Of a DNA stretch of 51,157 nucleotides, positions 46,665 to 47,438 are shown piece after piece. A model generated the notes under the pieces. It worked only from the letters and a program-made list of their open reading frames with translations. It made no database searches and was not told the DNA's origin. Origin of the DNA: a virus (Duplodnaviria > Heunggongvirae > Uroviricota > Caudoviricetes); IMG/VR virus record IMGVR_UViG_2925877141_000001; one strand, given 5' to 3'. How positions within the stretch are numbered: the first letter of the stretch is position 1; every line of letters begins with the position of its first letter. The position numbers and the translations under genes are program-made.

Positions 46665-47438
46665 TCAAAAATTAGGTGAGTAACGGACCGGGGACATAGC
46701 TCCTTTTTTTCTTAATTCATCTGGTATTTTTTTTCCAAGATAAAGATTTGCTATTTCAGGTGGGGCTTCTCGACCTTCAAAACCATAGCGCGAACTTTGT
46801 GTTGCCTCAAAGTCAGGATCCTCGTCCCAGTATTTCAACGAAGGGAAATTTTCACGTGTTGATTTGAGCCATTTATCAGCAATGAAAACCCCTCGAACGA
46901 TCCCCCTTACAGTAGCAAGAATGATTTCTGCTTGGCTGGCGCGAGAGACATTAATGCGCCAGCTAAATCGAACCGCATCATAAAGCTCTGAATCCTTTGC
47001 ACTTCTGTTAACGGATATCATTAATGCTTTATGATGAAATGTTATGGTTTCGGGCTGATATGTTGCTATCAACTCTTTGACATGCGCGGCGCCGAATTCA
47101 TTGCTGCCAGCACCATTCATGATATTCGTTAACCCAGGGTAGGCATCAATAAGTGCTGCTTCAACTTCGTACGCCGTCTTTTCATCAGTCATTCCGTGTC
47201 GATGGATGACATGGATAACTTCAAGTCCTGCTAACCTTATTTCTCTAATTTGCTTTAGCTTGTTGCTCAGTAACTCGTCATCATCAGTCGCTGCCACTTC
47301 ACCGCGCATATGGGCAAATACGCGGTTACCTTTGCCTTTCCCTACATAGAAGGTGCTTCCGTCCCTCGGATCAATCAATCGGTATACATACCAGCCAAGG
47401 TGTTCAATTACTCCAGAAGGAAACTCAGTAATATCCAT
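46665..47438 (-). CDS. GIY-YIG nuclease-domain protein with ~170-aa C-terminal region of unknown function
   Basis: N-terminal [27 protein letters not shown] matches the GIY-YIG motif pattern. Confidence 0.65.

Follow-up and report, generated by a model that had tools for sequence, protein, structure and literature searches.

A GIY-YIG nuclease gene at the ssrA end of an Escherichia coli prophage is very probably an allele of the direct-immunity enzyme CMoRE/PD-T4-3

Our analysis of the window, the whole 51,157-nucleotide stretch of viral DNA held as IMG/VR record IMGVR_UViG_2925877141_000001, indicates that the product of the gene at 46665..47438 is very probably an allele of CMoRE, also called PD-T4-3, an enzyme that confers direct immunity against phages whose DNA contains 5-hydroxymethylcytosine (5hmC) or glucosyl-5hmC. 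We assign it to this family because the profile match, the diagnostic residues and the acidic run are all present. The gene itself is already known: it is an ordinary E. coli copy of a named defence enzyme with a published mechanism and crystal structure. RefSeq still labels it "LEM-3-like GIY-YIG domain-containing protein" or "hypothetical protein", and transferring the CMoRE/PD-T4-3 function is useful for annotation. The family is also of practical interest as a 5hmC-specific reagent (PMC12923530). What we add is modest and in part tentative: an empty-site comparison that shows the gene to be prophage cargo, a slot shared with mcrA in e14, and weak matches of the sensor domain to PUA-like readers.

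The gene and the parts of its product lie in the window as follows.

46665..47438, minus strand: open reading frame of the predicted CMoRE/PD-T4-3 protein, ATG start, 257 aa, intact
47109..47438, minus strand: N-terminal GIY-YIG ("GIYxY-YIG") nuclease domain, residues ~1-110, with Y17, Y19, Y31, R39, E93 and N105 present
47274..47285, minus strand: codons D52-D53-D54-E55 of the acidic autoinhibitory loop, located by alignment with the crystallised proteins
[quoted passage not shown]

A preliminary description of this DNA had noted a GIY-YIG motif within the first 45 residues, and a check of individual residues confirms it: the signature reads G15-W16-Y17-V18-Y19, F30-Y31-V32-G33 and R39. Residues 28-110 match the Pfam family LEM-3_GIY-YIG (PF22945; E = 2.2e-14; 54.2 bits against a cut-off of 27), and it is through this match, above the curated threshold, that the protein belongs to the GIY-YIG superfamily; the generic GIY-YIG family (PF01541) remains sub-threshold, at 13.8 bits against a cut-off of 22.6. 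An NCBIfam search with the window protein returned no match, and the same description was fair in calling the C-terminal region unassignable, since no Pfam or NCBIfam family covers any of that half.

Defence and phage protein collections are more specific. The PADLOC profile for PD-T4-3 (PDLC04031) matches residues 1-256 on positions 1-255 of its 256 (E = 7.6e-140), and phrog_5356 is matched in PHROG (E = 5.7e-142). PD-T4-3 was renamed CMoRE by Liu et al. (Nat Commun 2026, January 2026; PMC12923530), who crystallised the proteins of E. coli O157:H7 (9U75/9U8D) and E. coli APEC O1 (9U7U/9U7Z). These were the only two proteins matched when we searched the sequences of solved structures with the window protein, the first far beyond chance (E = 5e-171) and the second at E = 1.6e-150 with 85.2% identity. 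The O157:H7 protein is 97.3% identical to that of the window and differs from it by seven substitutions (T51A, E55D, Q169K, I172V, N197H, S200T and L201M). At position 197 it is the window protein that carries the family-invariant Asn, and the active O157:H7 protein that carries His. Judged from the sequences, none of the seven differences would argue for a loss of function. The window gene is the one annotated as WP_000355482.1 in NZ_CP122517.1, with equal coordinates and 100% nucleotide identity; many genomes have an annotation for an identical protein.

Every residue tested in PMC12923530 is kept in the window protein, in which Y17, Y19, Y31, R39, R80, V92, E93, L96, N105, Y127 and the acidic run at 52-55 are present. 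Across 60 homologues of 53-98% identity, Y17, Y19, Y31, R39, H43, E93, N105, Y127, W160, W190 and R217 are invariant. The three tyrosines Y17, Y19 and Y31, together with a catalytic Arg and Glu, make up the GIYxY-YIG motif as defined in PMC12923530; the Arg and Glu are probably R39 and E93. The acidic run, which corresponds to the acidic loop of the CMoRE family, reads DDDE in the window, DDDD in O157:H7 and DDDE in APEC O1. The preliminary description had allowed for a degenerate nuclease stripped of its catalytic residues, and this does not apply, because those residues are fully conserved, in the window protein as in the 60 homologues. The structural model of the C-terminal domain shares the fold of 9U75, as expected for the sensing domain. 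Separate reader and nuclease domains, and gene contexts that mostly lack any methylase, are those of a type IV enzyme, and the variation of neighbours between contexts is that of a single-component one. We infer the biochemical activity of the window allele from its identity to the studied proteins and from the conserved residues.

The published work describes what such a protein does. As cited in PMC12923530, PD-T4-3 came from ECOR68; the original selection (Vassallo et al. 2022, PMC9519451) yielded 21 new systems, of which one is listed as a GIY-YIG nuclease and many lie in prophages. CMoRE blocks T2, T4 and T6 without killing the cell. In purified form it breaks down DNA with 5hmC or glucosyl-5hmC, and shows no binding to, or cutting of, C or 5mC DNA; T4(C) escapes and T4(hmC) does not (PMC12923530). 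Cleavage follows the pattern CN11/N9G, leaves 2-nt 3' overhangs and requires two modified cytosines (PMC12923530). [quoted passage not shown] A 15-residue acidic loop between helices alpha2 and alpha3, found in most but not all family members, covers the active site, and the enzyme is a tetramer whose oligomerisation and defence are both broken by V92S/L96S (PMC12923530). Deletion of PD-T4-3 from a native clinical isolate renders it sensitive to Tevenvirinae phages (bioRxiv 10.1101/2024.12.20.629700), and one report describes expression of a PD-T4-3 gene as pH-responsive.

Taking the mechanism from the 97%-identical O157:H7 protein, we propose that the window CMoRE would assemble as a tetramer, a dimer of dimers, whose C-terminal domains would bind DNA with 5hmC or glucosyl-5hmC and pass over DNA with C or 5mC. 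One dimer would read two modified cytosines ~21 bp apart, and the GIYxY-YIG domains would then cut between both cytosines (CN11/N9G, 2-nt 3' overhangs) with Mg2+ or Mn2+. The acidic loop D52-E55, lying over the active site, would exclude unmodified host DNA. The expected outcome is that T-even phage DNA is degraded and the infected cell lives, which is not abortive infection.

That last point needs weighing, as many single-gene nuclease defences do act as toxic effectors that destroy host and phage DNA together once triggered. Mutant 4A of CMoRE, in which the four acidic residues are changed to alanine, has relaxed specificity, cuts ordinary DNA and is toxic (PMC12923530), so the enzyme does have a latent self-directed activity. 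Even so, we regard abortive infection as extremely improbable here. Cells with the O157:H7 allele grow normally at an MOI of >1, and T4 DNA is depleted in them with no change in host DNA reads; nor does 5hmC DNA or 5hm-dCTP trigger cutting of ordinary DNA (PMC12923530). The acidic run that restrains the enzyme is intact, as DDDE, in the window protein. Survival at MOI >1 marks CMoRE as direct immunity, and on this survival and the untouched host DNA we rejected the abortive reading (PMC12923530).

The genomic setting of the predicted CMoRE gene is the end of a prophage at ssrA, with the following features.

8403..8436, strand not applicable: attL core, partner of the attR repeat (33/34 identical; blastn repeat), left end of the prophage
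42630..46412, plus strand: side tail fibre gene, convergent with CMoRE (Pfam phage_tail_N and Peptidase_S74)
46461..46595, plus strand: truncated tail-fibre-assembly gene, convergent with CMoRE, C-terminal remnant only
46598..46645, minus strand: terminator-like hairpin (46607-46645) and U-run directly after the CMoRE stop codon
47439..47802, strand not applicable: CMoRE-methyltransferase intergenic region, 364 bp, presumed promoter region, conserved up to 47510 (e14/icd context) or 47639 (O157 context)
47803..49278 (RefSeq start 47845), plus strand: M.EcoRII-like C5-cytosine DNA methyltransferase, divergent from CMoRE (DNA_methylase, E = 4.7e-78; DNA_meth_N; PADLOC MTase_II, E = 4e-230)
49313..50527, minus strand: EcoRII-family type II restriction endonuclease, 404 aa (Pfam EcoRII-N and EcoRII-C; PDB 1NA6, E = 3e-243 over residues 1-403)
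50755..50788, strand not applicable: attR core, a 34-nt repeat from the ssrA 3' end (blastn repeat)
50756..51118, minus strand: ssrA (tmRNA annotation)

The prophage between the repeats measures ~42.4 kb, with CMoRE and the restriction-modification (R-M) pair inside it. Two complete genomes match window positions 1-8436 at 100%, and the match ends exactly at 8436. In the one examined, NZ_CP071436.1, this sequence runs straight into ssrA and so represents an empty site. Everything between the 34-nt repeats, CMoRE included, is therefore one insertion. These repeats and the empty site bear out the earlier placement of the gene in the prophage b-region near attR, and the annotation of the flanks agrees with its having been described as convergent with the fibre genes and adjoining an R-M pair.

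Downstream of the gene, the hairpin folds at -26.1 kcal/mol (z = -4.26), a stability reached by no sequence among 200 shuffles; a simple terminator scan had missed it, and folding found it. Upstream, a scan for the sigma-70 consensus turned up no credible promoter on the minus strand close to the start codon, and no obvious Shine-Dalgarno sequence precedes the gene. Constructs of the O157:H7 allele with the native promoter are active, and the APEC O1 allele defends weakly from its own promoter (PMC12923530). As for the neighbouring fibre, it ends in a Peptidase_S74 intramolecular-chaperone domain, which, next to the remnant of the assembly gene, is consistent with a replaced module that does not need an assembly protein.

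Because 5mC is not a substrate, CMoRE is compatible with the adjoining Dcm/EcoRII-type methylase. The locus is a clear example of layered defence at a prophage end, with an EcoRII-type system directed against unmodified DNA and a type IV enzyme against hypermodified DNA. The prophage that carries these layers itself lacks its tail genes. By BLAST, the window is collinear with strain MY1-8 only from 36771 onward, the left part being shifted by a 4,153-bp deletion and by other flanking DNA; these 4,153 bp are absent relative to an MY1-8 prophage that is otherwise 99.5-99.6% identical. At the junction, near 36771-36778, a fusion reading frame (36014-37075, plus strand) joins the tail tube protein (Phage_TTP_12 and Big_2) to the C-terminal half of minor tail protein L. 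Genes G and T, the tape measure gene, M and the start of L are missing, so tail assembly by this prophage is expected to fail.

Other parts of the window also hold genes of interest. At the opposite end of the prophage, two minus-strand genes (8509-9408 and 9488-11272) lie between attL and the integrase (11280-12446). One encodes a D12-class adenine methyltransferase (PADLOC PD-Lambda-5_B, E = 1e-123) and the other a 594-aa AAA_15/AAA_21 ATPase with partial PADLOC matches of the PtuA-, AriA- and GajA-like kind; PD-Lambda-5_A is absent from the best 25 PADLOC matches of this ATPase. The segment 8509-11272 may hold a second defence pair. In lambdoid phages, accessory genes are common between the antiterminator and holin genes, and in this interval of the window, after the antiterminator gene (22706-23458), a plus-strand gene at 23604-24857 encodes a 417-aa STAND-type NTPase (Pfam nSTAND1, AAA_16 and AAA_22; weak PADLOC match to PDC-S59), a possible further defence candidate. 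Left of attL, positions 1-8400 form a decayed island with IS2 and IS3 copies, an integrase arm-domain fragment and a YpjC-like remnant. Its AT-rich block at ~1000-4000 (~32-34% GC) encodes a large serine recombinase (1039-2595) and two ParB/RepB-like proteins (2585-3481 and 3478-4374). The island appears to be a relic of an element that was present at ssrA earlier.

The CMoRE gene is widespread in the species. We found it in 957 of 5,426 complete E. coli genomes (~1 in six), 941 of which hold at least 80% of the gene. It occurs in several gene orders:

lambdoid tail fibre - CMoRE - methyltransferase - endonuclease - ssrA, in the window and MY1-8
pinE - CMoRE - methyltransferase - endonuclease - ssrA, in the baseplate-type prophage of an O103:H2 strain
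pinE - CMoRE - AraC-family gene, in O157:H7
ssrA - two hypothetical genes - CMoRE (APEC-type allele) - DinI remnant - DUF262 protein - tail fibres
a frameshifted CMoRE copy directly beside an icd fragment and iraM

A conserved cassette can be recognised across these arrangements. Its left edge is window position 46607, the foot of the hairpin, in three other genomic contexts; on the right it extends either to a point 70-200 nt before the start codon or far enough to take in the R-M pair.

One possibility is a single obligate three-gene system made up of CMoRE, the methyltransferase and the EcoRII-type endonuclease. The three recur together at 99-100% identity in 243 complete genomes and beside two different prophage types at ssrA, and CMoRE and the methylase diverge across one 364-bp region. 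However, the R-M pair is missing from about three quarters of the CMoRE genomes (243 against 941-957), in other contexts the gene is accompanied by AraC, DUF262 or IS elements, CMoRE defends when cloned alone, and EcoRII R-M is a self-sufficient classical system. An obligate system is thus very unlikely, and we rejected it on the co-occurrence counts and the single-gene defence. We infer that CMoRE and the EcoRII pair could be complementary, in that EcoRII cuts unmethylated CCWGG and CMoRE would cut the hypermodified DNA that escapes EcoRII, although the finding of all three genes in 243 genomes, against 941-957 with CMoRE, counts against this as well.

The contexts with pinE and icd connect CMoRE to another type IV enzyme. 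In the e14 element of K-12 the order is pinE - mcrA - icdC - iraM (locus L011, 4686-6578), and in other strains it is pinE - CMoRE, or a frameshifted CMoRE followed by an icd fragment and iraM (loci L002, L004 and L005, ~5389-7627). As mcrA and CMoRE occupy equal positions in related elements, two unrelated type IV enzymes share one slot. In E. coli SF-468, at the ssrA end of another prophage, a 629-aa DUF262 protein is encoded two genes from CMoRE (locus L003, 7826-9715). DUF262 is a domain of GmrSD-type modification-dependent enzymes, and SF-468 may carry two hypermodification-directed nucleases side by side.

Homologues also occur outside prophages. Lytic jumbo phages (Moabite and relatives, and OBP) have full-length homologues of 33-45% identity, as does a 108-kb E. 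coli phage. Phage copies are found at the following positions:

Serratia phage Moabite, locus L008, 3501-4265
Pseudomonas phage OBP, locus L009, 3492-4253
Escherichia phage PhiR41_1, locus L010, 3456-4223

The phage homologues keep Y17, Y19, Y31, R39, E93 and N105 and lack the four-residue acidic run. They may serve in competition between phages. Their annotation reads homing nuclease or hypothetical protein.

These labels bear on the identity of the window gene. The preliminary description had proposed either a homing-type nuclease or a defence effector, and a free-standing GIY-YIG homing endonuclease, similar to I-TevI or the Seg proteins of T4, would spread its own gene by site-specific cutting. 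A GIY-YIG catalytic domain is indeed present, phrog_314 ("homing endonuclease") gives a weak partial match (E = 0.0022), the jumbo-phage homologues are annotated as "putative homing nuclease", and the gene travels in a small mobile cassette whose left boundary is fixed across contexts. Yet the phage labels derive from domain annotation only, and the C-terminal half is a modified-base sensor rather than the extended DNA-binding domain of I-TevI. The published cleavage depends on modification, is nearly indifferent to sequence and depletes T4 DNA genome-wide, and there is no intron, intein or conserved target-gene neighbour in the window or the phages examined. The gene lies in accessory DNA, with a tail-fibre remnant on one side and an R-M pair on the other, and we did not class it among the homing endonucleases, a reading whose chance of being right we put close to nil. 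Of the two proposals, then, the defence effector stands, as a PD-T4-3/CMoRE allele, and homing is not supported: the gene is free-standing cargo at a prophage end, and the family cleaves in dependence on modification, with the loose pattern CN11/N9G in place of a long specific homing site.

For the sensor of CMoRE, the ligand sits on an edge and not in a pocket, and the authors of the structures describe a distinct fold and report no structural homologue (PMC12923530). A Pfam scan of 60 family members at E up to 10 assigned no family to the C-terminal domain, EVE, YTH and ASCH included, and a profile search of PDB sequences with the family alignment returned CMoRE alone. When a model of the sensor domain was compared with structures, the PUA-like readers (EVE, YTH and ASCH) appeared as consistent weak matches, ranking next in Foldseek at non-significant E-values. 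Among the structures weakly matched by this model are 5j3e (the EVE domain of THYN1 with 5mC DNA), 6yex (the type IV enzyme VcaM4I), 6zd9 and 5o8m (YTH), 5guq (ASCH), and 6n0s and 6p0g (the N-terminal domain of archaeal McrB). Also matched were 2ar1, 1wmm, 2kku and 2gbs, small archaeal, bacterial and protozoan proteins that we take to be EVE/ASCH-like.

Another model-based match came from a predicted phage protein. BFVD entry A0A8S5N646 (Myoviridae sp. ct8ME27), 320 aa long and labelled as a PD-(D/E)XK nuclease, aligned with the sensor model at Foldseek E = 1.5e-9, with a TM-score of 0.60 and 22% identity. This comparison of models suggests a reader module combined with another nuclease class. 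We entertain, at somewhat less than an even chance, that the sensor is a very divergent relative of the PUA-like readers of flipped bases (EVE, YTH, ASCH, SRA-like), a module perhaps also shuffled onto other nucleases, and that the slot after the tail-fibre genes of E. coli prophages is an exchange point at which unrelated type IV enzymes (McrA, CMoRE and a DUF262 protein) take one another's place. With a PUA-like sensor, CMoRE would join the evolutionary pool of reader modules that includes those of VcaM4I, archaeal McrB and the eukaryotic 5mC and m6A readers. The PUA-like kinship, seen with a model as the query, is a lead and not a conclusion.

How the window protein compares with known systems can be stated family by family. 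It has the same length and the same two-domain "type I" architecture as the O157:H7 and APEC O1 CMoRE proteins (PMC12923530). The seven differences from the O157:H7 protein are conservative or of surface type, and the neighbours differ: pinE and an AraC-family gene in O157:H7, a lambdoid tail fibre and EcoRII R-M in the window. The Capnocytophaga homologue PD-T4-3Capno, 48% identical to the E. coli reference, is modification-dependent like CMoRE, both in vivo and in vitro; it degrades T4 but not T4-GT7 DNA, its catalytic mutants lose defence, and it is also reported to cut Mu DNA, which contains carbamoylmethyl-adenine (PMC12366544). The PUA-like readers (EVE/THYN1, YTH and ASCH, with VcaM4I and archaeal McrB) have no sequence-level likeness to the CMoRE sensor, and their structural scores are weak.

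McrA (EcoKMcrA) of the K-12 e14 element is, like CMoRE, a single-gene type IV enzyme, and it fills the slot that CMoRE has in e14-like elements of other strains, flanked by pinE and by the icd fragment on the attR side. The two proteins are unrelated. The nuclease domain of McrA is of the HNH type, and its targets are methylated and hydroxymethylated cytosines within a sequence context; CMoRE is a GIY-YIG nuclease that ignores 5mC. In the PvuRts1I family, the cut falls between two modified cytosines at a set distance. The PvuRts1I/AbaSI family and GmrSD resemble CMoRE in combining a 5hmC/ghmC reader with a nuclease, a comparison drawn in PMC12923530. Finally, the GIY-YIG homing enzymes (I-TevI and Seg) and UvrC share with CMoRE the catalytic core of Tyr, Tyr, Arg, Glu and Asn; CMoRE differs from them by an additional tyrosine (GIYxY-YIG), an acidic insertion of 15 residues, a different C-terminal domain and a genomic context other than homing.
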